Of a stretch of DNA of 64,000 nucleotides, positions 2,800 through 64,000 are shown one piece after another. The position numbers and the translations under genes are program-made. The notes beneath the pieces are model-generated. The model had not been told where the DNA came from, made no database searches, and saw only the letters and a list, made by a program, of their open reading frames with translations. Position 1 is the first letter of the stretch. Every line of letters begins with the position of its first letter. The DNA lies in contig CBDDCK010000005.1 of the NCBI GenBank assembly GCA_965225855.1, positions 384,001 to 448,000 of the forward strand, read 5' to 3'. Source of the stretch: Spirochaetia bacterium. Its GTDB lineage: Bacteria; Spirochaetota; Spirochaetia; SP-2023.

Positions 2800-2980
2800 T
2801 AAGCCTTTTGATTGGCATTGATTTTTAACCACCTTACAACACAAAACAACACTAAGACACAAAAAAACTTACAAAAAGCTTGTATAGGCCTTGACGCAAC
2901 ACCCCCCCTAGCAAAATGGGGATTTACACACTAGCCCGTATGGGTTGGTTAATCTTTATCCCTTGTTGGAGGTATTGCTT
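2800..2980 (+). promoter_or_regulatory. Conserved ~180-bp upstream module of the lipoprotein family (copy 1)
   Basis: aagccttttgattggcat...ttgacgcaacacccccctagcaaaat...ggaggtattgcttATG recurs near-identically at about 19068-19278, 44168-44367 and, on the minus strand, 63868-64000. Confidence 0.85.
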
Positions 2981-4741
2981 ATGTATAAGCACAAACTATT
3001 TTTATTGCCATTAGCATTGCTACTGGCCTTTATGGCCTTGGCCTGCGCACCACCCGATGACGATGCGCCGTCTTCTGGGCCGTCTAAGCCGACTATCAAT
3101 AACGCCATCTACAATGTTGGCACGGCTATCTTAACCGTACAAGGCACTAACTTAAGTCCTACAGAAGCCCAAATCCAAACCATCGTAGTAGATGGCATAG
3201 CTTTAGATTCCTATACTGCAGATGACCCAGCCACTGGGCCAGATAGTAACGGTCTTGCAAAAGGTAAGTACCGTATTAAAAGCGATGGCACAGCGCTTTG
3301 GCTTAGACTTACCGATCGACATAAAGCTACTCTGAATGGCAAGAAAGGTATGGATAGCAATGGTCTAAAAAAAGGGTTGCTTACTAGCTCTGGTGCTTGG
3401 GCGGGTTTAAATACAGCCAAAGACTTAACCGTTAGTAATGTACCCGGTAAGCAGTCGCCTAAGCAAGCCAAACAAGCTGAACAAGCCGAACAAGTCGAAC
3501 AAGCCAAACAAGCCGAACAAGTCGAACAAGCCAAACAAGCCAAACAAGCCAAACAAGCCAAACAAGCCAAACAAGCCAAACAAACCGAAGAAGTCGAAGA
3601 TAAGCAGTCTAAGACCGAAACTGAAGATCAGTCGCCTAAGCAAACCGAAGCTGCAATTACCGGTGCAAGCTACCATGTTGGCACGGCGCTGTTAACCTTG
3701 CAAGGTACTGACTTAGCTAGTGCGACCCAAGCCCAAATCCAAACTATCAGGGTAGGAAGCCGAACAAATGGTGTAGCCTTAAGTTCCTATACTGCAGATG
3801 GCACAGCCACTGGGCCAGATAGTCGTGGTCTGGCAAAAGGTAAGTACCGCCTGCATAGCGATGGCACAGCGCTTTGGCTGAAACTTACCGATCAACATAA
3901 AGCTACTCTGAATGGCAAGACAGGTATGGATAGCAATGGTCTAAAAGATGGGTTGCTTAGCGTTGGCTCTGGTGCTTGGGCGGGTTTAAATACAGCCAAA
4001 GACTTAACCGTTAGTGGAAACCCCATAATTACCCGTGCAACCTATGATGTTACTTTAGGCTTGTTAGAGCTTACAGGTACTAATTTACCAAAAGCAGTTG
4101 CAGGCTGGGAATTGAGAAAATTGACGCTTGTATCCGGTGATGGTAGTAAGAAATACACATTACCCCAGCACTCAACTGTAGGCGCAAACAAAGCCACAGG
4201 TAGAATAGCAACTGCAACAAAATTATCTATTATTTTAGAGGGTAGTGTAAAAGCCAAAGCCGATGCTATATTGGTTAACGATGGTGTTCGTGATGCTAAT
4301 GGTGCATACAACCTGGAAGCAGCAGCAGGATTTGCAGGTGGTAGGGCAGCAGACACAACCAACCCTATTACCGTTAGTGGGTATACCATCGCCACAGCAA
4401 CCTACAATGCTAATACAGGCGAGTTAATTATTTATGGTAGCGGTTTACCGACAACAATTGCAGAGTGGGACTTTAGCAAATTGACGATTGTATCCAGTGA
4501 TGGTACTAAGAAATACACATTACCCCAGCACTCAACTGTAGGCGCAAACAAAGCCACAGGTACTATAGCAGCTATAAAAGGCTTAAAGATTATTTTAAGC
4601 GGTAGTGTAAAACAGAAAGCCGAAGCTATAATGCAGGAGAGTTTTATTTCATCATACAAACTTGAAGCAGCAGCAGGATTTATACCTAGTAGTCCAGAAG
4701 AAGTTATTCTTACTATTTTTATTAGTAGGGATTCTAAGTAA
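2981..4741 (+). CDS. Surface lipoprotein, repeat-domain family copy 1 (A-linker-A-B-B)
   Basis: GGAGGT RBS, signal peptide ending in lipobox FMALA-C22, two ~125-aa A domains, a Q/E/K-rich linker and two ~120-aa B domains. Paralogous to the ORFs at 19279, 44368 and 63867. Confidence 0.9.
   Translation: MYKHKLFLLPLALLLAFMALACAPPDDDAPSSGPSKPTINNAIYNVGTAILTVQGTNLSPTEAQIQTIVVDGIALDSYTADDPATGPDSNGLAKGKYRIKSDGTALWLRLTDRHKATLNGKKGMDSNGLKKGLLTSSGAWAGLNTAKDLTVSNVPGKQSPKQAKQAEQAEQVEQAKQAEQVEQAKQAKQAKQAKQAKQAKQTEEVEDKQSKTETEDQSPKQTEAAITGASYHVGTALLTLQGTDLASATQAQIQTIRVGSRTNGVALSSYTADGTATGPDSRGLAKGKYRLHSDGTALWLKLTDQHKATLNGKTGMDSNGLKDGLLSVGSGAWAGLNTAKDLTVSGNPIITRATYDVTLGLLELTGTNLPKAVAGWELRKLTLVSGDGSKKYTLPQHSTVGANKATGRIATATKLSIILEGSVKAKADAILVNDGVRDANGAYNLEAAAGFAGGRAADTTNPITVSGYTIATATYNANTGELIIYGSGLPTTIAEWDFSKLTIVSSDGTKKYTLPQHSTVGANKATGTIAAIKGLKIILSGSVKQKAEAIMQESFISSYKLEAAAGFIPSSPEEVILTIFISRDSK
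3464..3600 (+). repeat. 9-bp coding tandem repeat (CAAGCCAAA family) in the lipoprotein linker
   Basis: Six perfect CAAGCCAAA units at 3527-3580 (QAK x6), preceded by QAE/QVE variants. Confidence 0.95.
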
Positions 4742-4909: not shown

Positions 4910-5024
4910 CATAGCAAGGCACTAAAAAATTTATTAAGCCTACAAACTTTTTTTAGTAATAGCTTTGAACAAAAGCTTTGAACAAACCCCTTACAATAAT
5001 TATTACCAGAACGTTGCCATAACC

Positions 5025-5143
5025 ATTAAGAGAGTCTCTTAATGCCTAACAAGAGAATTTCTTAATAACTAACAACAGAGTTTCTTAATGCCCAACAACA
5101 GAGTTTCTTAATGCCCAACAACAGAATTTCTTAATGCCTAACA
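5025..5143 (+). repeat. ~23-bp tandem repeat array (about 5 units)
   Basis: Unit aacaacagagtttcttaatgccc with variants; a related array sits at 61445-61545 on the minus strand. Confidence 0.9.
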
Positions 5144-5150
5144 TGGGTAT

Positions 5151-5690
5151 TTATTCATTGGTTTTTTGCTGTTGCAATTGACTGTGCTTTAAGGGGCTAC
5201 CATCTAGTAATGTAACACGCTGCCCAATATCGACGTTGTGCCGCTCAAACCAACCTTGATTGAGCTCTAAAGCAAAGCGCATCGGCCAGCGCGAAGCTAT
5301 GGTAGTAGTGTCCAAAGGTTGCATATGGTAGATTTCACAGATTATGCCATCTTTATCTAAATAGGCTATGCTAAGGGGTATCAGCGTATTCTTCATATAA
5401 AAACGCAAGACTTTATCTTGTGGGAAGCTAAATAGCATGCCGTGCATTTCTGCCATAGATTGCCGGTGCATTAGGCCTTGGGCTTGTTGTTCGGGGCTAA
5501 GGGCTAGCTCGGCCTCTATGGTTTGCTTGCCCACTTTGAGCTCAATACTTACTAATGGCTCTTTTTTGCAGGCCCATAGAACCAACAGCAAACTAATGGC
5601 CCATAGGGCGTCTATTAGGGGCTTTATTGGCAGTGGCCTTTGGGCCAGTGTGCAGCTAGCAGAATAGCACAATAGATGGTTGTGATTCAT
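5151..5690 (-). CDS. DUF192 family protein, probable lipoprotein
   Basis: AELALSPEQQAQGLMHR...GMLF...FYMKNTLIPLSIAYLD...ALELNQGWF; LWAC lipobox-like motif. Start uncertain. Confidence 0.9.
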   Translation of the reverse strand: MNHNHLLCYSASCTLAQRPLPIKPLIDALWAISLLLVLWACKKEPLVSIELKVGKQTIEAELALSPEQQAQGLMHRQSMAEMHGMLFSFPQDKVLRFYMKNTLIPLSIAYLDKDGIICEIYHMQPLDTTTIASRWPMRFALELNQGWFERHNVDIGQRVTLLDGSPLKHSQLQQQKTNE

Positions 5691-15352: not shown

Positions 15353-16987
15353 TTAATAGGCACCGCCAATATTATTCTTACCACTAATATCTTTATTTTT
15401 TACTAGATTGATTGGGGCATTAATATTTTGCAATTCGGGAAGTAGTGTCTTAAAACGGGATTGCAAGGCATGAATATTATTTTCAAATAACTGTTTATCA
15501 AGCCCCGTTAAATCTCTACTAGACTGCAAATGCAGAGACTTTAGCCCTACCGGTTTATTGTAACGCCGCACTTCATAATGCACATGAGGTCCTGTTGATT
15601 TTCCCGTGCTACCGACATAGCCAATAATGTCTCCTTGGCGCACTTTTGAGCCAATTTTATAACCAGAACGGAAGCGACTCATATGCCCGTATAAAGTATC
15701 ATAACCGTTGATGTGGCGTATAATAATATGATAACCGTAGCCAATACGGCTCCAGCCACGGCGGATAATTCTGCCATTGCCACCTGCTTTGATGGGGGTT
15801 CCCGTAGGAGCTGCATAGTCTGTACCACGATGCAAACGCCAAGTTCCAAAGATTGGGTCGCGACGATAACCAAAATTGGAGGAAACGTATGCGCCATTGA
15901 CTGGCATCAATAATAAAAGTTTGTTAACGCTATGACCTTCCGGATTAAAAAATTCAGATTTGCCAGAAAGGTCTGTATATCGAAAAATGGGGAGAGCTTT
16001 GCCATTGGTTAGAATAATATTCGCATAGAGGATTTCACCAGAGCCAACGCGCACATCTTTCTCATTGTAAATCATCGTATAGATAATTTCGTAGCGAGTT
16101 CCGCGCTGAATATCACTTTGGAAGTTGATATCAAAACTATAGCGGTTAAACATTTCCAGCAATATGCCACCGGGAATCCCTTGATCAATACCATCTTGGT
16201 ACAATGAACGTTTTACGGTTACAATTGAATGGAAACTTTTTGACCTCAATTCGTGATATTCAATTTCATTTTTTGCTTCACCATTATACAAATACGCATG
16301 GACCGTTTTATCTTTATTGCCGATTTGAAAACCCACTAATTCTTTGCGATTGCTATCGTTAAAAAATAATTGGATAGGGTCTTCGGCGCGTAGTCTTGTA
16401 AGGTCTAGATCATCTTCTACGCTTAAAACTAAATTCGAACTATGCTTTTGGCTTAAACCATAGCGTTTGAGCAATAATACCAGTGCTTCATTGTGTTCTA
16501 AATAACCCACTTCGGTTGTCAATCCGTTCTTCCAATTTTGCCAAAGCTCTTCAGGACTAAGCTTTTTTTGGGAGCGTAAATACTCATCGAGTGTTGGAGT
16601 ATCCTTCAAATGTTTTTTAGAAAAAAATGACGAATACGGATTCAATTTTGAAAACCAAGCAATAGAAAATAATGCGAATAAAATAGCCATTATTCCTAAC
16701 AGCGTGCGATTCAATGGGTGAGAGATTTTCTCATTGTCAGAATTTTTAGGTTCCAGCTTTTTACTGGTAAAAATATTTGCATTTGGGGAAGGCTCATTTG
16801 ATATAATCTGAGGAATACTCCCCATCACATTTTGGGCTTGCCTTTGTGAGCAGTAAGTGCGCCATGGCAATACTTTATTTACATTATTCTGCGAGATAAG
16901 AACCTCGTCATCGTCCTTCCAAATATTTTTTGAGTAATTCATTTTGTCCATTACAACATATTCCTTTTTTGAAGTACCAGCCTTCAA
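15353..16987 (-). CDS. Membrane-anchored M23 family peptidoglycan endopeptidase (MepM-like)
   Basis: One TM helix, Csd3/OapA-like middle domain, HRGTD (HxxxD) and STGPHVHYE (HxH) zinc motifs. Confidence 0.92.
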   Translation of the reverse strand: MKAGTSKKEYVVMDKMNYSKNIWKDDDEVLISQNNVNKVLPWRTYCSQRQAQNVMGSIPQIISNEPSPNANIFTSKKLEPKNSDNEKISHPLNRTLLGIMAILFALFSIAWFSKLNPYSSFFSKKHLKDTPTLDEYLRSQKKLSPEELWQNWKNGLTTEVGYLEHNEALVLLLKRYGLSQKHSSNLVLSVEDDLDLTRLRAEDPIQLFFNDSNRKELVGFQIGNKDKTVHAYLYNGEAKNEIEYHELRSKSFHSIVTVKRSLYQDGIDQGIPGGILLEMFNRYSFDINFQSDIQRGTRYEIIYTMIYNEKDVRVGSGEILYANIILTNGKALPIFRYTDLSGKSEFFNPEGHSVNKLLLLMPVNGAYVSSNFGYRRDPIFGTWRLHRGTDYAAPTGTPIKAGGNGRIIRRGWSRIGYGYHIIIRHINGYDTLYGHMSRFRSGYKIGSKVRQGDIIGYVGSTGKSTGPHVHYEVRRYNKPVGLKSLHLQSSRDLTGLDKQLFENNIHALQSRFKTLLPELQNINAPINLVKNKDISGKNNIGGAY

Positions 16988-17239
16988 AAAGCCTCCCTAA
17001 ATATAGCTGCTTTAGCCATCAAGCTAAAAATCCCGCTAGTCTACTTATTTTCAAACATAAATCAAGACTTTTTAAAAATATTTAGGGGGGTGCTCGGTTT
17101 ATAAATTTCTAACAAAAGCAAAATTTTGCTTGTTGGTCAAATTGCTGATTGCTGAATGTATTGCTCTTTTTTGTTATATGTTTACAATTCAGCAGAGTTT
17201 TGTACTAAAATTTTATTTTTCATATTAGAAGCAATTTCA

Positions 17240-17800
17240 ATGACTATGATATTTACAATACTGAACCGAATGTTGCCTGATCGCAATTGGTTATTGGCCA
17301 TATTATTTTTATTTGTGTTTTTCGGCATTATTTTACCCCCAAAAATTTATCCTGAGAGTTTCGGCTACACAATGAATCGCATTGTTGAAGTCGATGTCTA
17401 TATCGATCCTACAGATTATTTTTATTACTATTATAGTTTTAACTATTTAAATAGAGCTTTAAAGTTAGATGGCCTTGAACGCAAGATACAGTCTCTTAGT
17501 ATGTTAGAAGTAGAACCTAACATCGATAATTACTATCATGATCAAAAGCCAAAAATATATCTGGTCATTATTTACCAGCACAATTTGGATAAATATCAGG
17601 AAATGTTGGAATTAATCAACTTTCGAGAGCATTTAGTTTTGTGGATTATTTCCCCTGAAGGGGAAAAATTGGTTAATCCTACGGATTTTAATTTAGATGG
17701 AATGAGTTCGGCATCGATTGTCGATAGCTTCCATCAAGAGTTTCGTTCCTATATTTTGCCTAGGATTTTTACTTTGTATACAAATAGAGATAGGGTCTAA
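17240..17800 (+). CDS. Hypothetical membrane or exported protein
   Basis: Open frame with a hydrophobic N-terminal segment; no recognisable family; start uncertain. Confidence 0.55.
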   Translation: MTMIFTILNRMLPDRNWLLAILFLFVFFGIILPPKIYPESFGYTMNRIVEVDVYIDPTDYFYYYYSFNYLNRALKLDGLERKIQSLSMLEVEPNIDNYYHDQKPKIYLVIIYQHNLDKYQEMLELINFREHLVLWIISPEGEKLVNPTDFNLDGMSSASIVDSFHQEFRSYILPRIFTLYTNRDRV

Positions 17801-18009
17801 CTTTTTGAGTCTGCTTCCTAGCTTTTTCGAAATTTTTTATGGCAATAATATCTTGAAATTTTATGCTTACTTTTTTATATCGCAGCCGCCATATTTCTGG
17901 CCTAGCCGATGGAAATGGTTATTTGGAAAGTAGTCATTTGTTTTCCCATTTATTGGAGCATTGGCTGCGAGGTACAGCACAAAAATTCGGTTGTAGCATC
18001 AAAAGTTGC

Positions 18010-18241
18010 AGATATTGATGGTTTTGGCCTTATGCCGTACAGAAATGAGTTATATAGGTCTGGCTTTTGTTCCAGCGTGATTCCCCAATTGCCGTTGTGT
18101 GAATATGCTTTGGCTGAATTACAGTGGCTAATGACGCAGGCCAATAATAAAGCCAGTGCGGAGGATGATTTCTACGGTCAGCCACATCAAAGTTGGCAGG
18201 AAATTTATTCTGCTTGAATAAAGAAGATATTTACCGTAAGG
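18010..18241 (+). repeat. 232-bp direct repeat, left copy (putative long target-site duplication)
   Basis: Matches 21703-21934 (offset 3693) with two substitutions seen; ends immediately before the element's TGA. Confidence 0.95.
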
Positions 18242-18418
18242 TGAAAGAGGACATGATAACTTAACGGGATAAGACGTGATAACTCGGGATTTTTTGGAAC
18301 AAATGGGAAGGTAAAAATTGGCTTACTTTCCAAAATAAAAAGGTAAAAAAATTTTTGTTTTTCGGCATATGGGTTGTCGGCAACAATATGCTTTATATCA
18401 TGGTAACGGGCCACGGTC

Positions 18419-18465
18419 TCAAAAAGCTAGTAAGGTTTTGACTGAAAACCTTACTAGCTTTTTGA
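18419..18465. terminator. 21-bp perfect stem-loop with A/T tails, possible bidirectional terminator
   Basis: tcaaaaagctagtaaggtttt-gactg-aaaaccttactagctttttga; second copy at 43879-43923. Confidence 0.7.
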
Positions 18466-18701
18466 TTGGCAACCTAGGGATTTTCCAACAAACCCGATCG
18501 ACACTGTATGGCCAAAGTTGTTTGCAACGAGCGCTTTCGCTATATACCCACAAGAGCCGCAAGGTAAAGGCCAAAGGGCTTCAGATAAAAAAAGACTAAA
18601 ACATAGCCAAACGATTATTAATGATAGGCTGGTAAAAGAAATTTTAGCTAAGGCTAAAGCAGAACAATACCGATAAATAAATACCCCAGCCCCCTCTAAC
18701 T

Positions 18702-18820
18702 ATAGAATTACCTCCCACCTATTTAATAGAATCGACCTAAATCTATCAATAGAATTACCTCCCACCTATTGATAGAATTGACCCAAATCTATCAATAGAT
18801 TTACCTCCCACCTATTAATA
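18702..18820. repeat. Alternating ~23-bp tandem array (A-B-A-B-A)
   Basis: A = atagaattacctcccacctatt, B = atagaatygaccyaaatctatc; each monomer has ATAG...CTAT ends. Confidence 0.9.
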
Positions 18821-18822
18821 CC

Positions 18823-19030
18823 CTAGTCTTTAATGAAATTTTCTACATCGGCACATAATCCAGGACCTATACAACAATCATCGGAAATCGTTGGCCAAAT
18901 TCTGAACGCCCCTGAAAGAATAATATCCCGTTTTCATTTTCATTAAATGTTTCACCTTTTGGAGATTGCCCCATAGTGTAATTGAGGTGTAATCAAGTAT
19001 TTTATTCAATTCTACACTTTGCCACCCCCC
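18823..19030 (-). pseudogene. hsdS: Fragment of a type I R-M specificity subunit (HsdS target-recognition domain)
   Basis: Manual translation in three pieces: GWQSVELNKILDYTSIT / MGQSPKGETFNENENGILFFQGRSEFGQRFP / DDCCIGPGLCA. These match the MGQSP...FQG..EFG..FP...CCIGRGL type of HsdS TRD, with frameshifts and an internal deletion. Confidence 0.75.
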
Positions 19031-19278
19031 AAAGGCCAAACAAAGGCCAAACAAAGGCCAACACCCTTAAGCCTTTTGATTGGCATGGATTTTGAACCAC
19101 CTTACAACACTAAACAACACTAACACACAAAAAAAGTGCCCAAAACATAAAAAAGCACAAAAAAACTTACAAAAAGCTTATATAGGCCTTGACGCAACAC
19201 CCCCCTAGCAAAATGGGGCGCTGTACACTAGCCCGTATGGGTTGGCTAATCTTTATCCATTTGTTGGAGGTATTGCTT

Positions 19279-21399
19279 ATGTATAAGCACAAACTATTTT
19301 TATTGCCTGTAGCCTGGCTACTGGCCTTTATGGCCTTGGCCTGCGCCCCACCCGATGACGATGATGCGCCATCTTCTGGGCCGTCTGGGCCTGCAATCAC
19401 CAGTGCAAGCTACGATGTTGGCACGGCTCTGTTAACCGTACAAGGTACTGACTTAAGTCCTACAGAAGCCCAAATCCAAACTATCACGGTAGCTGGCGTA
19501 GCCTTAAGTTCCTATACTGCAGATGACGATGCCACTGGGGTAAATAGTAACGGTCTTGAACAAGGTAAGTACCGTATTAAAAGCGATGGCACAGCGCTTT
19601 GGCTTAGACTTACCGATCGACATAAAGCTACTCTGAATGGCAAGGTGGATAGCAATGGTCTAAAAAAAGGCTTGCTTACTAGCTCTGGTGCTTGGGCGGG
19701 TTTAGATACAGCCAAAGACTTAACCGTTAGGAATATACCCGCAGCCGAACAAGTCGATGATCAATCGCCTAAGCAAACTGAAGATAAGCAGTCGCCTAAG
19801 TTACCCGAAGCCGAACAAACCGAAGAAGTCGATGATGAATCGCCTAAGCAACCTAAAGACAAACAAGTCGAACAAGCTGAAGAAGAGTCGCCTAAGCAAC
19901 CTAAAGCTGAAGATCAGTCGCCTGAAGCTGCAATTACCGGTGCAACCTACAATGTTGGCACGGCGCTGTTAACCGTACAAGGTTCTAACTTAAGTGCTAC
20001 AACTGCGACCCAAGCCCAAATCCAAACCATCACGGTAGATGGGGTAGACTTAAATTCCTATATTGCAGATGGCACAGCCACTGGACCAGATAGTCGCGGT
20101 CTTGCAAAAGGTAAGTACCGCATTAAAAACGATGGCACAGCGCTTTGGCTTTACCTTACCGATACCGATAAAGCTACTCTGAATGGCAAGGACGGTATGA
20201 ATACCAATGGTCTAAAAGATGGGTTGCTTAGCGTTGGCACTGGTACTTGGGCGGGTTTAGATACAGCCAAAGCCTTGGCCGTTAGTGGTAACCCCGCACC
20301 CGCAATTACCAGTGCAACCTATGATGTTGGTACAGGCGAGTTATATATTAGAGGTGTCAAGTTACCGAAATTATTTGCAAGATGGGACTTTAGCAAATTG
20401 ACGCTTGTATCCGGTGATGGTAGTAATAGATACACATTACCAAGGCACGCAACTGCAGGTGAAAACACAGCCTCAGGTTCTCGTGTAGGTACAACCTACT
20501 TAAGTATTACTTTAAGCGGTAGTGTAAAAGCGGAAGCCGAGAAGATACTGGTTAACGATGGTGTTCGTGATAATAATGGTGCATACAACCTGGAAGCAGC
20601 AGCAGGATTTGCAGGTGGTAGCGCAGAAGACACAAGTAACCCTATTACCGTTAGTGGGTATAATATCATCAGCAAAGCAACCTACGATGCTAATACAGGC
20701 GAGTTAATTATTTTCGGTATCGGTAAACGTTTACCGGAAACAGTTGCAGAATGGGACTTTAGCAAATTGACGCTTGTATCCGGTGATGGTAGTAAGAGAT
20801 ACACATTACCAAGGCACGCAACTGCAGGTGAAAACACAGCCTCAGGTTCTCGTGTAAGTGCAACATTCTTAGCGATTACTTTAAGCGGTAGTGTAAAAGC
20901 GGAAGCCGAGAAGATACTGGTTAACGATGGTGTTCGTGATGCTAATGGTGCATACAACCTGGAAGCAGCAGCAGAATTTGTATCTGGTAGGGTAGCAGAA
21001 ACCAGCAACCCTATTACCGTTAGTGGCTACGTAAGCCAGATCGAATACGTATTATACACAACTATTAATGGCCAGTTAACTATTAGAGGTACGAGGTTAC
21101 CGACAGCAGTTGCAGATTGGGACTTTAGCAAATTGACGCTTGTATCCGGTGATGGTAGTAATAGATACACATTACCCCGGCACTCAACTGTAGGTGAAAA
21201 CAAAGCCACAGGTTCTAGTGCAAGTGGAACAAACTTAGTGATTACTTTAAGCGGTAGTGTAAAAGCGGAAGTCGAGAAGATACTGGTTAAGGCTGGTTTT
21301 CGTGATAATGCTGGTGCATACAACCTGGAAGCAGCAGCAGAATTTATATCTGGTAGTCGAGAAGACCTAAAAAATGCTATTAAAGTTATAGATTGGTAA
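19279..21399 (+). CDS. Surface lipoprotein family copy 2 (A-linker-A-B-B-B)
   Basis: Same RBS, signal peptide and lipobox as copy 1; two A and three B domains. Confidence 0.9.
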   Translation: MYKHKLFLLPVAWLLAFMALACAPPDDDDAPSSGPSGPAITSASYDVGTALLTVQGTDLSPTEAQIQTITVAGVALSSYTADDDATGVNSNGLEQGKYRIKSDGTALWLRLTDRHKATLNGKVDSNGLKKGLLTSSGAWAGLDTAKDLTVRNIPAAEQVDDQSPKQTEDKQSPKLPEAEQTEEVDDESPKQPKDKQVEQAEEESPKQPKAEDQSPEAAITGATYNVGTALLTVQGSNLSATTATQAQIQTITVDGVDLNSYIADGTATGPDSRGLAKGKYRIKNDGTALWLYLTDTDKATLNGKDGMNTNGLKDGLLSVGTGTWAGLDTAKALAVSGNPAPAITSATYDVGTGELYIRGVKLPKLFARWDFSKLTLVSGDGSNRYTLPRHATAGENTASGSRVGTTYLSITLSGSVKAEAEKILVNDGVRDNNGAYNLEAAAGFAGGSAEDTSNPITVSGYNIISKATYDANTGELIIFGIGKRLPETVAEWDFSKLTLVSGDGSKRYTLPRHATAGENTASGSRVSATFLAITLSGSVKAEAEKILVNDGVRDANGAYNLEAAAEFVSGRVAETSNPITVSGYVSQIEYVLYTTINGQLTIRGTRLPTAVADWDFSKLTLVSGDGSNRYTLPRHSTVGENKATGSSASGTNLVITLSGSVKAEVEKILVKAGFRDNAGAYNLEAAAEFISGSREDLKNAIKVIDW

Positions 21400-21702
21400 G
21401 TAGGGTTTGGTTGTTGCAACGTTTGCATTTGAAAATTGCAACCTTGGTAAGTTTTTTAGCAAGGTTGCTTTTGCCAATTATAGCCTTGGTATGGAGAAAA
21501 TACCAAGGCTGTAAAAAAATTTATTAAGGCTACAAATTTTTTTGTCAAGGCTGTAAATTTTTTTATTAAGGCTGCTTTTGCCAATTCCAGCCTTGGTAAA
21601 TTTTTTTATCAAGGTTGCTTTTGCCAATTATAGCCATTCTGGAAAGTAGAAAAAAATCGAGTTATCACGTCCGATGGCACAAAGTTATCACGTCCTGCAT
21701 CA

Positions 21703-21934
21703 AGATATTGATGGTTTTGGCCTTATGCCGTACAGAAATGAGTTATATGGGTCTGGCTTTTGTTCCAGCGTGATTCCCCAATTGCCGTTGTGTGAATATG
21801 CTTTGGCTGAATTACAGTGGCTAATGACGCAGGCCAATAATAAAGCCAGTGCGGAGGATGATTTCTACGGTCAGCCACATCAAAGTTGGCAGGAAATTCA
21901 TTCTGCTTGAATAAAGAAGATATTTACCGTAAGG
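21703..21934 (+). repeat. 232-bp direct repeat, right copy
   Basis: Starts immediately after the terminal CA at 21701-21702; near-identical to 18010-18241. Confidence 0.95.
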
Positions 21935-22037
21935 ATTGGCAGCAGGCTCAACGCTATTTGCGCAAACATCCTATCTTCGGTATTAAACTTTTATTACAGC
22001 CCAAGAAGAGGGAGTCTAAGCCCATTCCCTTTTAAAC

Positions 22038-22724
22038 TTACCGACCCAAATATTGTAAAATTTTTGATTGGATTGTATCTCGGTTTTGGTCAGCATTTAA
22101 GCAGTGGATTTGCATATCTGGGGCAATTTGGCGAAAGTGTTGGATAACATCTAAGTAGGCTTGATGTACACGAGTGAGAAAACCGATAGTTTCAAAAATC
22201 TCTGTTGGGCAATGCTCTTTGGCTTCGCGCTGGGCAATGCGTTGGGCTGCTTTCTCGGCGGGTATATCCATATAAATAAAATACTGCGGTATAGGAAAAT
22301 GGCGATTTAATTGCCAAATTTGGGCCAGCGGTGTGCTTTGGCCTTGATAGACTAAAGAAGAAAATAAATAGCGTTCTGAAATACAAATATAGCCGTTTTG
22401 AATTTGTTTGGAAATCACCTGTATATGTTGGGCACGATCATCTGCAAAATACTGGGGGAGATTATGCCTTTCTGTCATAAGTTCGGGACTATCTGCTTGC
22501 TTTTGCAACAAAAAACGAATCTGCTGGCCAATTGGCCCTGAACTGGGCTCTGTGCTACGCTCACAAGCAATATTTTGCTTTACGAAATATTGTTCGAGCA
22601 AACGAGCTTGGGTTGAGCTGCCCGAGCCATCAATTCCTTCTATTACGATAAAATTTTTTATTATGGTAGGGTGCTCATAGCCATAGTTTAGCTGGGAAAG
22701 TTGTTGAGTAAAACTTTGAATCAT
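22038..22724 (-). CDS. tmk: Thymidylate kinase
   Basis: FIVIEGIDGSGSSTQ, EPS, FADDRAQH, SERYLFSSLVYQ, EIFE. Confidence 0.92.
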   Translation of the reverse strand: MIQSFTQQLSQLNYGYEHPTIIKNFIVIEGIDGSGSSTQARLLEQYFVKQNIACERSTEPSSGPIGQQIRFLLQKQADSPELMTERHNLPQYFADDRAQHIQVISKQIQNGYICISERYLFSSLVYQGQSTPLAQIWQLNRHFPIPQYFIYMDIPAEKAAQRIAQREAKEHCPTEIFETIGFLTRVHQAYLDVIQHFRQIAPDMQIHCLNADQNRDTIQSKILQYLGR

Positions 22725-22729
22725 CTGCG

Positions 22730-23623
22730 TTATTTATGTTTTTGCAACAGGCTGCGAAAACCGTTATAAGGTTTATCTGCCTGCGAAAATAGTTGGAGTA
22801 AAACATCATGAAGCTCTGGCGCGCTAGCTAATACCGAGTAGGGAAAATCTTTTTGTGTGCCGTATAAATCCGTATATTTGCCGCCAGCCTCTTCTAAAAT
22901 TAAGCAAGCTGCAGCTACGTCATAAAGGTTTAAGCCAATTTCCCAAAAACCATCATAAACTCCGGCTGCCACCAAACAAATATCCAAAGCGGCTGAACCC
23001 AAACGCCGAATATCGCTGACATGCGGCAGTATATAACCTAAATATAAATAGTTATTTGGCTGGATTCCCGCGCGCAAACAACCAAAACCGGTAATTAGTA
23101 CAGAACTAGCCAGTTGATTTTGCGGGCTTTCTTTGGGCTTTTCTTCCTGCAAACGCTTGGGCTCTATCAATTGGTAGCTTGAATCATTGCTAGTTTGCAC
23201 CCCATAATGCCAAGCTCCGCAACCGCGTTCGGCCATGTATAATTCAGCTAAAGCTGGCCCATAAACGGCTGCCAAAATAGTTTGGCCATTATGTTGCAGA
23301 GTAATGCTCACGCTGTAGTAAGTAAAGCCTTTGACAAAGTTTACAGTACCATCAATGGGGTCTATCAACCAACAATACTCTTCTTGTAACTGCGTTTTGT
23401 CCAGCTTCTCACCAAACTCCTCGCCTATGATTTTGTGCTGGGGAAATTGCGTTTGAATTTGCTGCCGAATAAAATGCTCTACATTTTCATCGGCTTCCGA
23501 AACCAAATCCCGCACGGTATGGTTTTTAGAGCGGACAGCTAGCCCAGCTAAATCCTTGCGGAATTGCAGGCTAAGCTGTCCAGCAGAAATAATCAATTGT
23601 TCTAAGAAAATGCGAAATTCCAT
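22730..23623 (-). CDS. suhB: Inositol monophosphatase family protein
   Basis: DLVSEAD, IGEE, WLIDPIDGTVNF, RRLGSAALD, YDVAAACLILEEAGG. Confidence 0.9.
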   Translation of the reverse strand: MEFRIFLEQLIISAGQLSLQFRKDLAGLAVRSKNHTVRDLVSEADENVEHFIRQQIQTQFPQHKIIGEEFGEKLDKTQLQEEYCWLIDPIDGTVNFVKGFTYYSVSITLQHNGQTILAAVYGPALAELYMAERGCGAWHYGVQTSNDSSYQLIEPKRLQEEKPKESPQNQLASSVLITGFGCLRAGIQPNNYLYLGYILPHVSDIRRLGSAALDICLVAAGVYDGFWEIGLNLYDVAAACLILEEAGGKYTDLYGTQKDFPYSVLASAPELHDVLLQLFSQADKPYNGFRSLLQKHK

Positions 23624-23664
23624 TGCTTATTCGTGCGCAACTGTCAATGAGCAATCGTCAATAA

Positions 23665-25254
23665 TCAATTTGCTTCACCAGCTGGCGCATTATCATCTTC
23701 GGTCGCCCCCCGTTCTTGAGCCAATTGGTCATATGTTTTATAAGGCGTGCGCTTGTTAAAACCATTGTGCGGCGAACGGAATCGCAGAGCCAATTCTGCT
23801 CCCCAAAAATCTTTAGCCACTGTATTTAAATGGATAGCAGCCTGGAATTGAAACGACCCTAAATTGAGCATAAGCCCAGGCGAGAAATTGCTGTTGTAAT
23901 ACTGCAAAGTAACACGCAAAGCGTTGTTAAATAGCCCTACACCGGCGAGCAAGCGCAGGTGGTCGATAGGGTCAAACAAGGCCGAGTAGGGGCTTTGGCC
24001 ACCTTTGAATAAGCCACGCAGTTGGATAATTTCCAAACCGCCAAACACTTGCAAAATTTTGGGGAATTGATGTTCGGCATAAACGCCCCAGTCAAAATCT
24101 ATAGCGTAGCGCACTTTATCGCCCTTGCTGCTAAAAGGTATGTTAAAACCGAGCAAGTCGGAAATTTTTAAGCCTGCGTGGAGAAATTTCAACTGGGGCA
24201 TGATTGCGCCAAAATGGTATTGCACGCCAAAGTCTAAGCCTAAGTTCACACCCACTAGTGAAGTTAGGGCATCGCTAAGTACCTTATTGGCATCAACCCC
24301 GCTGTCATTAGCCGAGTTAGAGATTAAATTCCCCAGCGAGTTTTGATTCATACCGATGTAAGGGGCAAATTTAAGGCCCAAACCAAAGGTAAAGCCGGGC
24401 AGCGCTTCATTAAAATCGTGGGCAAACGCTAAACGCAGCGGCGTTGTAAAATACACTTGTAGCCCTAGCGGAACGTTTGCTTTTAGCTTAATTCCTTTGA
24501 TTGTCATGGATAAGGGCATGGAAACCGATTTTACGTTGTTGCGGAAAACGGCTTTTTCTTCAATGCCAAAGTAAAAACCCCAGGCTAATGGCTTGTAGTC
24601 ATTGACATGGCTTAGTGAAAGAGTACGGGCATACAACTCAAGACCCAAGTCCCCCACGCTTTTACTGATTTTATCTATCATTACATCGGTAAGTTCGCTT
24701 ACAACGTCTGCTGCGTCTTTTAGGTTATCTACCAATTTCTCCTTATCATCACGTGATAAATCCTTGATTTTTTGAATAGTTAAATTGTCTTTACCCTGTA
24801 GAGAGTCAATATCATTTACCAGTCGATCATAAGCCTTATCGGTTAGCGATTTTATTAGCTCTACGGTTTTATCATCACCTGTAGGGTCTTCACTGAGTAA
24901 CTTGGTTAAATTCGTTACAAATTTAAATTCATCGATAATTCTGTCGCTAATTTTGCTGGGGTCTTGCAATAGCTCCCAAGTATCGGCCGTTAAAAATGCA
25001 TCTGCAGATACGACTTCGGTGATCCATTCATGTTTTTTGCCTGCTTTATTTTTATCTTGCAAAAGGCTATGCCGTTCTTCTTTGTTTTTAATACCCGCAG
25101 GGTTGGACAAAATTGAGCTAGCTTGGCCGGGTTCGGCCACCATGGCGTCCATGCCCCCACGCCGCCATTCATCGGTAGGGGCTTGGGCAAACAAATGGCC
25201 TCCAGTAAACCAAACTGAAAACAGTATTGCTAATAGTTTATTTTTGTTGTTCAT
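23665..25254 (-). CDS. Exported, probable outer-membrane protein
   Basis: Signal peptide, GGM...NPAG N-terminal motif typical of FadL/TraF-like barrels, and amphipathic beta-strand-rich C-terminal half. Confidence 0.6.
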   Translation of the reverse strand: MNNKNKLLAILFSVWFTGGHLFAQAPTDEWRRGGMDAMVAEPGQASSILSNPAGIKNKEERHSLLQDKNKAGKKHEWITEVVSADAFLTADTWELLQDPSKISDRIIDEFKFVTNLTKLLSEDPTGDDKTVELIKSLTDKAYDRLVNDIDSLQGKDNLTIQKIKDLSRDDKEKLVDNLKDAADVVSELTDVMIDKISKSVGDLGLELYARTLSLSHVNDYKPLAWGFYFGIEEKAVFRNNVKSVSMPLSMTIKGIKLKANVPLGLQVYFTTPLRLAFAHDFNEALPGFTFGLGLKFAPYIGMNQNSLGNLISNSANDSGVDANKVLSDALTSLVGVNLGLDFGVQYHFGAIMPQLKFLHAGLKISDLLGFNIPFSSKGDKVRYAIDFDWGVYAEHQFPKILQVFGGLEIIQLRGLFKGGQSPYSALFDPIDHLRLLAGVGLFNNALRVTLQYYNSNFSPGLMLNLGSFQFQAAIHLNTVAKDFWGAELALRFRSPHNGFNKRTPYKTYDQLAQERGATEDDNAPAGEAN

Positions 25255-43460: not shown

Positions 43461-43677
43461 TGGAAAACTGTAATTGTTTGGTAGAAAACTCACTGCTAAA
43501 TTTTAAGTGAGTCTTTTTTGAATGAAATATGAACAAATGTTGCCTTTGGCAAAAATAAGCCCCCACCCCAACACCAAACCAATAGCTGCCCCACCCCCAA
43601 CCAACACCCCAAAGCAACAAACCCGATCAACATTGTATTGCCAAAATTGTTTGCGTGAAGAGCCCCGACTAAATAGT

Positions 43678-43949
43678 TGATCCGGAACATGATAACTGAA
43701 CGGGATAAGACGCGATAACTCGGGATTTTTTTGGGGACAAATGGAAGGTAAAAATTGGCTTACTTTCCAAAATAAAAAGGTAAAAAAATTTTTGTTTTTC
43801 GGCCTATGGGTTGTCGGCAACAATACGCTTTATATCATGGTAACGGGCCACGGTCTCAAAAAGCTAATAAGGTTTCTGAAAAAAGCTAGTAAGGTTTTGA
43901 CTGAAAACCTTACTAGCTTTTTTGATTGGCAACCTGGGGATTTTCCAAC
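43678..43949 (+). mobile_element. Second copy of the element's left-end block, upstream of lipoprotein copy 3
   Basis: TGATCCGGAACATGATAACT...GACGCGATAACT followed by about 230 bp nearly identical to 18242-18490. No matching right end seen after copy 3. Confidence 0.8.
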
Positions 43950-44367
43950 GAGGCTGTGGCAGTCTCTAAAAAAATCGCAAAAAATTGTATTGTATTATTT
44001 TGCTAAAAACTGGGCTGTACTGCGATACAAAAAACTCAAATTCTTATTCTTATACTTTGTGCCATGATGTTTCGTACGATCATACGCAACGCCCGGACTG
44101 CGTCTAGCGTATTACAAATTTTTACCCAAGGTATCTCAAGCAATCTCAAGGTATCTCAAATAATCTCAAGCCTTTTGATTGGCATGGATTTTGAACCACC
44201 TTACAACACTAAACAACACTAAACAACACTAAACATAAAAAAACTTACAAAAAGCTTACAAAAAGCTTGTATGGGCCTTGACGCAACACCCCCCCTAGCA
44301 AAATGGGGATTTACAGACTAGCCCGTATGGGTTGGCCAATCTTTATCCATTGTTGGAGGTATTGCTT

Positions 44368-46401
44368 ATGTATAAGCTCAAACTACTTTTATTGCCATTA
44401 GCCTGGCTACTGGCCTTTATGGCCTTTGCCTGCGCCCCACCCGATGACGATGATCGATCTTCTGGGCCGTCTGGGCCTGCAATCACCAGTGCAAGCTACG
44501 ATGTTGGCACGGCTCTGTTAACCGTACAAGGTACTGACTTAAGTCCTACAGAAGCGCAAATCCAAACCATCGTAGTAGATGGCGTAGCTTTAGATTCCTA
44601 TACTGCAGATGACCCAGCCACTGGGCCAGATAGTAGCGATCTTGCAAAAGGTAAGTACCGTATTAAAAGCGATGGCACAGCGATTTGGCTGAAACTTAAA
44701 GATCAACATAAAGCTACTCTGAATGGCAAGGTGGGTAGCAATGGTCTAAAAAAAGGCTTGCTTAGCGTTGGCACTGGTGCTTGGGCGGGTTTAAATACAG
44801 CCAAAGACTTGGAAGTTAGTAATGTACCCGAAAATAAGCAGTCTAAAGTATCCGATGACAATCAGCCATCTAAGCAAACTGAAGAAGCTGAACAAGACGA
44901 ACAAGCTGAAGAAGTCGAACAAGCTGAAGATAAGCAGTCTAAGACCGAAACTGAAGAAGAGTCGCCTAAGCAACCTAAAGCCGAAGATCAGTCGCCTGAA
45001 GCCGCAATTACCGGTGCAAGCTACCATGTTGGCACGGCGCTGTTAACCTTGCAAGGTAATGACTTAGGTAGTGCAACCCAAGCCCAAATCCAAACTATCA
45101 CGGTAGATGGCTTAGCCTTCAGTTCCTATATTGCAGATGCCACAGCCACTGGGGCAGATAGTCGCAGTCTTGCAAAAGGTAAGTACCGCATTAAAAACGA
45201 TGGCACAGCGATTTGGCTGAAACTTACCGATACCGATAAAGCTGCTCTGAATGGCAAGACAGGTATGGATAGCAATGGTCTAAAAGATGGGTTGCTTACT
45301 AGCACTGGTGCTTGGGCGGGTTTAGATACAGCCAAAGGCTTGGCCGTTAGTGGACACCCACCCACAATTACCCGTGCAAGCTATGATGTTGGCACGGCGC
45401 TGTTAACTGTACAAGGCACGAACTTAAGTCCTACAGAAGCCCAAATCCAAACCATCGTGGTAGATGGCTTAGCCTTAATTTCCTATACTGCAGATACCAC
45501 AGCCACTGGGGTAAATAGTAACGGTCTTGAAAAAGGTAAGTACCGCATTAAAAACGATGGTACAGCGCTTTGGCTTTACCTTACCGATCGACATAAAGAT
45601 GCTCTGAATGGCAAGACAGGTATGGATAGCAATGGTCTAAAAGATGGGTTGCTTACTAGCACTGGTACTTGGGCGGGTTTAGATACAGCCAAAGGCTTGG
45701 CCGTTAGTGGAAACCCCGCACCCGCAATTACCCGTGCAACCTACAATGTAAATACAGGCTCATTAAAGATTACAGGTACTAATTTACCAAAAGCAGTTAC
45801 AGGCTGGGACTTTAGGGAATTGACGATTGTATCCGGTGATGGTAAGAAGAGATTGACATTATCCCGGTATACAATAGGTTCTGCAGCAAGTGCAACAAGC
45901 TTAAAGATTAGTTTAAATAGAGCCAAAGCCAATGCTATATTGGTTAAGGATGGTGATAGTGATGATGCTGGTGCATACAACCTGGAAGCAGCAGCAGGCT
46001 TTGTACCTGGTAGTAGCGCTGAAGACACAAGCAACCCTATTACCGTTAGTGGGAATACCATCGCCAGCGCAGAATACAATCCTAATACAGGCAAGTTAAC
46101 TATTGTCGGTAAAGGTTTACCGACAACAATTGCAGAGTGGGACTTTAGCAAATTGACGATTGTATCCCGTGATGGTACTAAGAGATTGACATTACCACGG
46201 CACTCAACTGTAGGTGAAAACAGAGCCACAGGTACTGTAGCAGTTACAAAAGGCGTAATTATTATTTTAAGCGGTAGTGTAAAAACCAATGCCGATGCTA
46301 TAATGCAGGATCGTTTTGGTCATTACAAACTTGAAGCAGCAGCAGGATTTGTACCTGGTGGTCCAGCAGACCCAACAGTTGTTCTTACTAGGAGTTCCTA
46401 A
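44368..46401 (+). CDS. Surface lipoprotein family copy 3 (A-linker-A-A-B-B)
   Basis: Same RBS and signal peptide (lipobox FMAFA-C); three A and two B domains. Confidence 0.9.
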   Translation: MYKLKLLLLPLAWLLAFMAFACAPPDDDDRSSGPSGPAITSASYDVGTALLTVQGTDLSPTEAQIQTIVVDGVALDSYTADDPATGPDSSDLAKGKYRIKSDGTAIWLKLKDQHKATLNGKVGSNGLKKGLLSVGTGAWAGLNTAKDLEVSNVPENKQSKVSDDNQPSKQTEEAEQDEQAEEVEQAEDKQSKTETEEESPKQPKAEDQSPEAAITGASYHVGTALLTLQGNDLGSATQAQIQTITVDGLAFSSYIADATATGADSRSLAKGKYRIKNDGTAIWLKLTDTDKAALNGKTGMDSNGLKDGLLTSTGAWAGLDTAKGLAVSGHPPTITRASYDVGTALLTVQGTNLSPTEAQIQTIVVDGLALISYTADTTATGVNSNGLEKGKYRIKNDGTALWLYLTDRHKDALNGKTGMDSNGLKDGLLTSTGTWAGLDTAKGLAVSGNPAPAITRATYNVNTGSLKITGTNLPKAVTGWDFRELTIVSGDGKKRLTLSRYTIGSAASATSLKISLNRAKANAILVKDGDSDDAGAYNLEAAAGFVPGSSAEDTSNPITVSGNTIASAEYNPNTGKLTIVGKGLPTTIAEWDFSKLTIVSRDGTKRLTLPRHSTVGENRATGTVAVTKGVIIILSGSVKTNADAIMQDRFGHYKLEAAAGFVPGGPADPTVVLTRSS

Positions 46402-61444: not shown

Positions 61445-61545
61445 TTCTTGTTAGTTATTAAGAGACTCTCTTGTTGGGCATTAAGAAATTCTGTTGTTGG
61501 GTATTAAGAGACTCTCTTATTGGGCATTAAGAAACTCTCTTAATT
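61445..61545 (-). repeat. ~23-bp tandem array downstream of lipoprotein copy 4
   Basis: Reverse-complement units aacaagagagtctcttaatgccc and variants; same family and same gene-relative orientation as 5025-5143. Confidence 0.88.
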
Positions 61546-61689: not shown

Positions 61690-63867
61690 CTAAGAATTAC
61701 TAAGAATATTTTTTAGGTCTGCTGTACTACCAGGTACAAATCCTGCTGCTGCTTCAAGGTTGTATAGACTAAAACGATCCTGCATTATAGCTTCGGCTTT
61801 CTGTTTTACACTACCGCTTAAAATAATCTTTAAGCCTTTTATAGCTGCTACAGTACCTGTGGCTCTGTTTTCACCTAAAGTTGAGTGCCGTGGTAATGTG
61901 TATCTCTTCTTACCATCACTGGATACAATCGTCAATTTGCTAAAGTCCCACTCTGCAATTGTTGTCGGTAAACCGCCACCATAAATAGTTAACTCGCCTG
62001 TATTAGCATTGTATGATGCGTTATTGATAAAACCTGCATAACCTCTAACGGTAATCGGGTTATTGCTTGTGTCTGCTATGTTACCACCTGCAAATCCTGC
62101 TGCTGCTTCCAGGTTGTATGCACCATTATTATCACGAACACCATCGTTAACCAGTATCTTCTCGGCTTCCGCTTTTACACTACCCGTTAAAAAAATCGCT
62201 AAGCCTCTTGCATTTGCTCCAGAACCTGTGGCTGTGTTTTCACCTGCAGTTGAGGAGCGCCGGGGTAATGTGAATCTCTTATTACCATCACCGGATACAA
62301 TCGTCAATTTGCTAAAGTCCCAGCCTGTAACTGCTGCTGGTAACCTGCTACCAAAAATAGATAACTCGCCTGTACTTACATTATAGGTTGCACTGGTAAT
62401 TGTGGGTTCAGGATTACCACTAACGGTAATAGGGTTGCTTGTGTCTGCTGCGCTACCACCTGCAAATCCTGCTGCTGCTTCCAGGTTGTATGCACCATTA
62501 TCATCACTATCACCATTCTTAACCAGTATCTTATTGGCTTCCGCTTTTACACTACCGCTTAAAATAATATTTAAGCCTGTTGCACTTGCTTTAAAACCTG
62601 AGGCTAGGTTTATACCTGCAGTTGAGTGCCGTGGTAATGTGTAGCTCTTACTACCATCACCGGATACAAGCGTCAATTTGCTAAAGTCCCAGCCTGTAAC
62701 TGCTGCTGGTAAATTAGTACCTGTAATCACTAACACGCCTGTATTAACATGGTAGGTTGCACGGGTAATTGTGGGTGGGTTTCCACTAACGGCTAAGGCT
62801 TTGGCTGTATCTAAACCCGCCCAAGTACCAGTGCTAGTAAGCAACCCATCTTTTAGACCATTGGTATTCATACCTGTCTTGCCATTCAGAGCATCTTTAT
62901 CGTCATCGGTAAGGTAAAGCCAAAGCGCTGTGCCATCGCCTTTAATACGGTACTTACCTTTTGCAAGACTGCGACTATCTGGCCCAGTGGCTGGATCATC
63001 TGCAATATAGGAACTTAAGGCTAGGCCATATACCGTGATGGTTTGGATTTGCGCTTGGGTCGCACTACCTAAGTGAGTACCTTGTACGGTTAACAGCGCC
63101 GTGCCAACATTGTAGCTTGCACCGGTAATTGCGGCTTTAGGCGACTCCTCTTCGACTTGTTCGTCTTTAGGTTGCTTAGGCGACTGCTCTTCGGTTTCAG
63201 TCTTAGACTGCTTATCTTCGACTTCTTCAGCTTGTTCGACTTGTTTGTCTTTAGGTTGCTTAGGCGATTGATCATCGACTTCTTCGGTTTGTTCGGCTTC
63301 GGGTAACTTAGGCGACTCTTGTTCAGCTTGTTCGACTTGTTCAGCTTGTTCAGTTTGCTTAGATGGCTGATTGTCATCGGATACTTTAGACTGCTTATTT
63401 TCGGGTACATTACTAACGTCCAAGTCTTTAGGTGTATTTAAACCTGCCCAAGCACCAGAGCTAGTAAGCAAGCCTTTTTTTAGACCATCGCTATCCATAC
63501 CGGGCTTGGCCTCAAGAACAGCTTTATCGTCATCGGTAAGTCTAAGCCAAAGCTCTGTGCCATCGCTTTTAATACGGTACTTACCTTGTTCAAGACCGTT
63601 ACTATTTACCCCAGTGGCTGGGTCATCTGCAGTATAGGAACTTAAGGCTACGCCATCTACTACGATGGTTTGGATTTGCGCTTCTGTAGGACTTAAGTCA
63701 GTACCTTGTACGGTTAACAGAGCCTTGCCAACATCGTAGATGGCGTTATTGATAGTCGGCTTAGACGGCCCAGAAGACGGCGCATCGTCATCGGGTGGTG
63801 CACAGGCCAAGGCCATAAAGGCCAGTAGCAGTGCTACAGGCCATAAAAATAGTTTGAGCTTATACAT
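61690..63867 (-). CDS. Surface lipoprotein family copy 4 (A-linker-A-B-B-B)
   Basis: Same RBS, signal peptide and lipobox; two A and three B domains; opposite orientation to copies 1-3. Confidence 0.9.
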   Translation of the reverse strand: MYKLKLFLWPVALLLAFMALACAPPDDDAPSSGPSKPTINNAIYDVGKALLTVQGTDLSPTEAQIQTIVVDGVALSSYTADDPATGVNSNGLEQGKYRIKSDGTELWLRLTDDDKAVLEAKPGMDSDGLKKGLLTSSGAWAGLNTPKDLDVSNVPENKQSKVSDDNQPSKQTEQAEQVEQAEQESPKLPEAEQTEEVDDQSPKQPKDKQVEQAEEVEDKQSKTETEEQSPKQPKDEQVEEESPKAAITGASYNVGTALLTVQGTHLGSATQAQIQTITVYGLALSSYIADDPATGPDSRSLAKGKYRIKGDGTALWLYLTDDDKDALNGKTGMNTNGLKDGLLTSTGTWAGLDTAKALAVSGNPPTITRATYHVNTGVLVITGTNLPAAVTGWDFSKLTLVSGDGSKSYTLPRHSTAGINLASGFKASATGLNIILSGSVKAEANKILVKNGDSDDNGAYNLEAAAGFAGGSAADTSNPITVSGNPEPTITSATYNVSTGELSIFGSRLPAAVTGWDFSKLTIVSGDGNKRFTLPRRSSTAGENTATGSGANARGLAIFLTGSVKAEAEKILVNDGVRDNNGAYNLEAAAGFAGGNIADTSNNPITVRGYAGFINNASYNANTGELTIYGGGLPTTIAEWDFSKLTIVSSDGKKRYTLPRHSTLGENRATGTVAAIKGLKIILSGSVKQKAEAIMQDRFSLYNLEAAAGFVPGSTADLKNILSNS

Positions 63868-64000
63868 AAGCAATACCTCCAACAAGGGATAAAGATTGGC
63901 CAACCCATACGGGCTAGTCTGTAAATCCCTATTTTGCTAGGGGGGGTGTTGCGTCAAGGTCTATATAAGCTTTTTGTAAGTTTTTTTGTGTTTTTTGTGT

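Follow-up and report, generated by a model that had tools for sequence, protein, structure and literature searches.

How does a lipoprotein gene come to lie between the TG...CA ends of an element that carries no transposase, and why is this element flanked by a direct repeat as long as 232 bp? These questions are raised by a 3461-bp unit (18242-21702) in a stretch of 64,000 nucleotides from a Spirochaetia bacterium (contig CBDDCK010000005.1, positions 384,001 to 448,000); the whole stretch is referred to as the window, and its coordinates are used for all positions given without a prefix. An earlier note on this DNA had described the unit as a non-autonomous element that disperses lipoprotein genes and makes giant target duplications. 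Our analysis suggests that the unit is a natural mini-Mu, in which a lipoprotein gene is placed between the ends of a resident prophage, is likely moved in trans by the prophage proteins TnpA and TnpB, and normally leaves a scar of 6 bp. We give this reading a probability of about 0.78, with the transposition of the cassettes deduced from sequence comparisons. The main finding is that the ends derive from a phage, a point absent from the earlier note, and the 232-bp repeat is secondary to it.

The ends of the cassette and the resident prophage

The unit starts with TGAAAGAG-GACATGATAACT and, read on the opposite strand, ends with TGATGCAG-GACGTGATAACT. The phage-derived left end with its TG terminus covers positions 18242-18348 on the forward strand, and the right end, with a TG terminus when read inward, covers positions 21630-21702 on the reverse strand. 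A second site is located 23 bp inward of the first at each end, giving two GACRYGATAACT sites per end (18250-18261 and 18273-18284 in the left end, 21694-21683 and 21671-21660 in the right end), which are putative transposase binding sites. The only open reading frame in the unit encodes a lipoprotein of 706 amino acids (19279-21399), and a transposase gene is absent. The direct repeat (18010-18241 and 21703-21934) touches the TG and the CA of the unit without a gap, its two copies differ at positions 18056 (A/G) and 18206 (T/C), and the match ends at the outer edges of both copies. The unit with its ends, the abutting repeat with two substitutions and the lipoprotein cargo without a transposase had all been described in the earlier note, and are confirmed here.

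The earlier note had suggested a search for an autonomous copy with a DDE transposase. A 36.1-kb prophage (G000:C5:1257688-1293766, where G000 is the source genome) that encodes such a transposase is bounded by the same ends. The left end of the unit is 94.8% identical to the left end of the prophage over positions 12-107, and the right ends are 97.3% identical over 73 bp. The prophage TnpA (586 amino acids; phrog_310, E = 1.8e-70; rve) matches the TnpA protein of phage B3 at 31% and is related to the BcepMu transposase, and its triad D144, D238 and E274 is invariant in all four aligned sequences. It is the sole rve match and the sole match to the TnpA profile in the genome (2.71 Mb in 5 contigs; assembly 94% complete). 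No solved structure was matched by the TnpA sequence, and its closest relative in the species-level genome collection comes from a record of Candidatus Haliotispira prima, a spirochaete. The TnpB ATPase matches B3 TnpB at 36%, and the prophage further encodes Mor, GemA, Mu gp27, a terminase, a portal protein, gpF, gpI and gpT. TnpA, TnpB, Mor and GemA serve as the four marker proteins for transposable prophages in PMC8705779. With a DDE TnpA of the Tn552/B3-related kind, TnpB, Mor, GemA, Mu-like head and tail genes and a length within the 36-39 kb or so of the type, the prophage is of the B3/BcepMu type.

The congeneric genome G002 (3.3 Mb) provides a control: the ends of its homologous prophage (TnpA 55%) are built in the same way, and the whole genome contains just two occurrences of the end motif, one at each end of this prophage. 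Mini-derivatives were not found in either of the two congeners (89% complete each), in which the two ends in G002 and the two left ends in G001 are all located on prophages. Amplification thus appears to be specific to the source lineage among the genomes searched. The prophage left end in G001 (L033:15420-15520) seems to have TA in place of TG at its start, which has also been described for certain Leptospira prophages (PMC8705779).

Distribution of the ends and of the lipoprotein family

In total, 113 loci of the cargo lipoprotein family were identified with tblastn, corresponding to 8.1% of the genome, and in 104 of these a single open frame covers 95% or more of the span (spans of at least 1.3 kb). 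Nearest neighbours among 107 family proteins have a median identity of 77%. The family is present in one of the 41 genomes searched, and of its 92 protein matches six come from outside its own assembly, five of them from ENA contigs and the sixth being weak and distant.

The end census comprises 32 left-type and 30 right-type ends, of which 6 are located away from any family gene. Both ends were found at 17 of the 113 loci, a left end only at 13, a right end only at 9 and neither at 74, so that the further paired ends for which the earlier note had proposed to search the genome do exist. The two-ended cassettes are 2.35-3.70 kb long, and their non-phage cargo is enclosed by a left and a right phage end that face outward, as in a mini-Mu. 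Their gene is always oriented from the left end to the right end, and none of the 56 gene-linked ends departs from this direction; one opposite end lies nearby. The left ends retain about 60-270 bp of phage sequence, and at most cassette ends the homology arm on the right measures only some 50-73 bp. Searches with the end motif gave no match in viral_contigs and nine in metagenome_contigs, all of which are unrelated tandem repeats without phage similarity.

Two larger end pairs were also observed. A 14.1-kb unit (L004:1523-15648; G000:C5:1027022-1041147) is delimited by a left end and by a right end of the phage type, is flanked by CTTTGC and GTTTGC, which differ by one mismatch, and contains two lipoprotein genes, a NikA-type ATP-binding cassette (ABC) transporter operon (above the cut-off of TIGR02294) and a multidrug and toxic compound extrusion (MATE) transporter; it is possibly a composite mini-Mu. 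At G000:C5:1590138-1616622, left and right ends in matching orientation lie 26.5 kb apart, both with the 6-mer ATTAGG; this is possibly a larger composite, for which the shared 6-mer could be due to chance.

Target duplications

Exact 6-bp duplications flank five of the 17 two-ended cassettes (CTTTAA, GTTATG, GTTAGG, TATAGC and TATAAT), as compared to 0.03 expected from the flank composition, and 6 bp is also the target duplication of B3 (PMC8705779). The window unit alone has a repeat of 232 bp, the other 11 have none, and intermediate lengths are not seen. Giant target duplications are therefore not the rule that the earlier note had assumed, while its non-autonomous TG...CA element that disperses lipoprotein genes is borne out by the cassettes with two ends and by their short scars, with mobilization in trans being likely. 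A central TA was observed in 24 of the 56 distinct flanks, versus 7.9% in the genome background. All five cassettes with duplications have cassette-type tips (TGAAAGAG; GACGTG), unlike the tips of phage copies (TGATACGA; GACGCG), which favours movement as cassettes over the replacement of an inserted phage.

In four of the 11 cassettes that lack a duplication, the left end lies on a repeated module that is shared. A further two ends belong together as partners in a paralogous repeat, with the target visible in the empty copy, and are now located 30 kb apart and inverted. These shared modules and separated partners suggest that many scars have likely been erased by recombination between cassettes. 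At two left junctions for which the target is known from an empty paralogue (G000:C1:5963 and C5:1592757), the last bases of the expected duplication have been replaced, and the junction reads TTAAT-TGAAAGAG. AAT precedes six of 18 TGAAAGAG ends versus three of 30 right-flank 6-mers, an excess that may be due to donor-flank carry-over or to conversion of the junction. Insertion hotspots of transposable phages have been described near palindromic repeats (PMC5977238). A candidate IS605-type hairpin at AATAGT flanks was rejected, as the search for full palindromes gave no match and a 22-bp tandem module was found instead.

The insertion site in the window and the origin of the 232-bp repeat

The site is located in an interrupted pseudogene (17979-21975, forward strand), in which the 3' part of a large host gene survives in frameshifted form; the frame is homologous to the 3' end of a 1637-codon gene in G002 (tblastx to locus L051, E = 2e-26), and the decayed reading frame mentioned in the earlier note is thereby shown to be real. 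Homology to G002 is collinear from 17979 through one repeat copy to 21975, indicating that a single copy is the ancestral state. The left copy (18010-18241) has the alleles A18056 and T18206, and its last bases, GTAAGG, are placed at the present left junction, whereas the right copy (21703-21934) has G and C and begins with AGATAT. The AGATAT at 18010-18015 is likely the original 6-bp target site, and the AGATAT after the right end would be the right half of its duplication.

Contigs from four public runs, representing 3 samples at most and 2 studies, were compared over positions 16000-24000 of the window. One contig of run X4, which belongs to the second study, connects position 18015 with 18242 (depth 11.7, with a short side of 28 letters), such that the left end directly follows AGATAT, just as AGATAT follows the right end in the window. 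An ordinary 6-bp insertion is thus likely to be ancestral at this site. In run X3, from a near-identical strain, a contig of 6459 bp with the right-copy alleles spans the empty site for which the earlier note had recommended a check. A contig with the right-copy alleles in run X1, from the same sample as X3, stops exactly at 18241, which implies a branch at that point. The left-copy alleles were found in no listed contig. Since X3 has both right-copy alleles, of which the G at 18056 agrees with the G002 homologue, its empty allele is more likely a site that was never filled. Precise loop-out through the 232-bp repeats, as envisaged in the earlier note, is possible, and the observed pair of alleles would then need a crossover in the first 46 of the 232 bp.

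Cointegrates and adjacent-deletion circles are expected products of Mu-type replicative transposition. The repeat likely represents two junctions 226 bp apart that either a later event or the assembler has combined. The cassette would first have inserted at AGATAT with a normal 6-bp duplication, and the filled allele would later have been joined to an empty allele that reached GTAAGG, 226 bp further on, to yield the arrangement [x..y]-cassette-[x..y]. The joining event could have been an intermolecular cointegrate or the re-integration of an adjacent-deletion circle. Inversions and deletions are noted in PMC3145075.

Alternative explanations

For the 232-bp repeat by itself, an assembly chimera of a mixed population, which combines left junction y with right junction x, would be compatible with the mini-Mu reading. 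The same sample yields both the empty-site contig and the contig that ends at 18241, neither of these is broken at 18010/21703, and the left-copy alleles are missing from the listed contigs, all of which would fit a chimera. We nevertheless consider it less likely than not, given that the unit is just 3.5 kb within a 2-Mb contig that resolves about 85 paralogues, that the break in X1 implies a second path leaving that point, and that rare variants are dropped from contigs, which makes the absence of a junction uninformative. The long variable duplications of IS1549/IS1634, of which 232 bp would be one example, are far less probable still. The exact abutment of the repeat on both ends agrees with such an element, as does the range of 8-514 bp given for IS1549/IS1634 repeats (PMC2266710), but a long repeat is present in only one of the 17 two-ended cassettes while five have exactly 6 bp, the left end in X4 is at the 6-bp position of the very same site, and the two repeat copies differ at two positions. 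Moreover, no transposase of the IS1634 type (NF033559, 0 candidates) or with DDE_Tnp_1 was found in the 94% complete assembly. The long, variable duplications of the IS1549/IS1634 kind that were suggested in the earlier note can be regarded as largely refuted.

It could also be argued that the cassettes never transpose by themselves, but that the whole prophage transposes and leaves the 6-bp scar, after which recombination within the common 60-270-bp ends exchanges its interior for a lipoprotein cassette. The loci evidently recombine often, as seen from mosaic cargo, common flanks and unclustered tree labels, and further parts of phage copies are located on C3, C4 and at the end of C5. However, the outermost 8-20 bp of all five cassettes with duplications are of the cassette type and not of the phage type, and the right arm is short at most ends; we therefore regard this explanation as unlikely.

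Evidence for and against a natural mini-Mu

The interpretation as a natural mini-Mu is supported by the ends that bound a prophage, by TnpA as the sole rve protein and by the restriction of the motif to the prophage ends in G002. It is further supported by the two-ended loci with their fixed gene direction, 6-bp duplications and cassette-type tips, and by the polymorphism of the window site, which is empty in X3 and has the left end at AGATAT in X4. By analogy with Mu and B3, TnpA would bind both GACRYGATAACT sites at each end and nick at the terminal CA, and the ends would join a target selected by TnpB with a 6-bp stagger. Each insertion would found a new locus of the family, with later diversification probably driven by recombination between copies. 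In the laboratory, mini-Mu(LR) units are amplified by MuA and MuB in trans (PMC3145075).

Several observations weigh against this interpretation. Phage ends are absent from 74 of the 113 loci, and exact duplications from 11 of the 17 two-ended cassettes, so that no more than a part of the family is explained by the phage route; the two thirds without ends show ragged boundaries, and the family may predate its capture by phage ends. One flank is common to five left ends, suggesting that ends are also spread by recombination. The end-bearing cargo does not cluster on a quick tree of the N-terminal region from 105 of the 113 loci (35 changes versus a shuffled mean of 35.1), and the cross-matching of distant 6-bp flanks gave three exact non-local matches versus about 1.3 expected, which is not significant. 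There are only two sites per end, with a single right site in two of the five cassettes with duplications. The X4 joint is a single contig with a short side of 28 letters, and the right junction was not among the matches listed. Finally, the one prophage with a transposase in the assembly has lost the first 11 bp of the left end, has no target duplication, and contains split portal and tape-measure frames; active TnpA may therefore come from a copy that lies in an assembly gap. At C5:2030137, a left end of the phage type is intact. The host sequence to the left of the prophage (L001:1-1188), which runs into the truncated left end, resembles what we take to be a frameshifted FGGY-type kinase gene.

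A more tentative idea is that the host has domesticated a transposable phage, with TnpA and TnpB as the engine that seeds hypervariable surface-protein loci and recombination then reshuffling the cargo. End pairs might in that case also move larger host blocks, such as the 14-kb unit with the nickel-type ABC operon. If true, surface variation would here be driven by a phage, in contrast to the cassette switching known from spirochaetes. Should the packaging signal be preserved in the left ends, cassettes would travel from strain to strain in phage particles, and this could also account for a duplication with differing copies.

Relation to known elements

The cassettes resemble the laboratory constructs mini-Mu(LR) and mini-D3112 (PMC3145075, PMC8705779) in that only the left and right phage ends flank unrelated cargo, that the transposase and ATPase would come in trans, and that several chromosomal copies are present with rearrangements between them. 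They differ in being natural, in the transposase of B3 rather than Mu type, in the 6-bp scar and in the host surface-lipoprotein cargo, with mobilization in trans being the proposed route. With B3/BcepMu-type phages, including Beetrevirus B3 and the transposable prophages of Leptospira (PMC8705779), they share the 6-bp scar, and the helper shares TnpA, TnpB, Mor, GemA, the TG...CA ends and a size of about 36 kb; unlike these phages, the cassettes have no phage proteins and the assembled helper has no left tip. MITEs (short for miniature inverted-repeat transposable elements) likewise have ends without a transposase, are mobilized in trans and can bracket host genes with end pairs, whereas the cassettes have phage-derived ends, units of 2.4-3.7 kb and a fixed gene orientation; the main text of a review on MITEs never mentions phage (PMC10969869).

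Tn3-derived TIME and IMU elements are also non-autonomous transposon derivatives, with ends but no transposase. The long repeat abutting both ends, as in IS1549/IS1634 (PMC2266710), is restricted to the window locus, and unlike in those elements no such transposase was found, the duplications elsewhere are 6 bp and the long repeat is likely secondary. In Borrelia, the Erp lipoproteins on cp32 prophages and the IS605-linked lipoprotein genes also tie surface-lipoprotein families of spirochaetes to mobile elements, but on whole plasmid prophages or beside IS605 stem-loops and not, as here, as single genes between transposable-phage ends across the chromosome. No natural mini-Mu family was described in the literature searched, a search outside which most subscription papers fall.

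Mini-Mu elements are known as laboratory tools, and the cassettes, if confirmed, would mean that a transposable phage builds a host multigene family. They would also make available dozens of naturally occurring variants of the ends, which define what a B3-type transposase requires in cis. Counting prophage-end motifs outside prophages is a simple screen for other genomes, and a lone long flanking repeat should not be taken as evidence of a transposase that makes long duplications.

The cargo lipoprotein and other features

The cargo has a signal peptide and a lipobox (LAC, Cys22), from which a surface location is predicted, followed by two N-type and three C-type beta-sandwich repeats with an acidic linker. 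Five beta-sandwich domains are predicted in the structural model (mean predicted local distance difference test score, pLDDT, 74), which matches generic Ig/IPT-like sandwiches only (best Z 6.5), and such generic fold matches of a model do not suggest a function. Nothing in Pfam matched the family above cut-off, and all its matches in the Atlas are without a name. A mosaic region upstream of the gene (18349-19278) contains repeat modules in common with other family loci and likely includes the promoter; a sigma-70 scan of this region gave six matches versus 6.9 in shuffled sequences, and the promoter and terminator scan did not exceed the shuffles. Repeat modules common across the family follow downstream (21400-21629). 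Genetic code 4 was rejected, as its gene set was no better than that of table 11.

Three further family members are located in the window. The one at 43678-46401 (forward strand) has a left end only, of the TGATCCGG type, which is placed inside the repeated upstream module GAGCCCCGACTAAATAGT (43658-43720), with a junction common to five loci. Those at 2945-4741 (forward strand) and 61690-63903 (reverse strand) have no phage ends. Tandem repeats of 23 bp 3' of two family members (4995-5158 and 61450-61544) belong to the mosaic downstream modules. The number of upstream modules varies among the family loci and could tune expression; one family gene is preceded by a 15-copy array of a 22-bp module (G000:C5:1231274-1231600). 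In G002, a tandem array of unrelated lipoprotein-like genes of 240-295 amino acids, with CCAATAT 7-mer repeats upstream, is located directly beside the prophage left end (L028:2600-20000; G002:C1:257600-275000).

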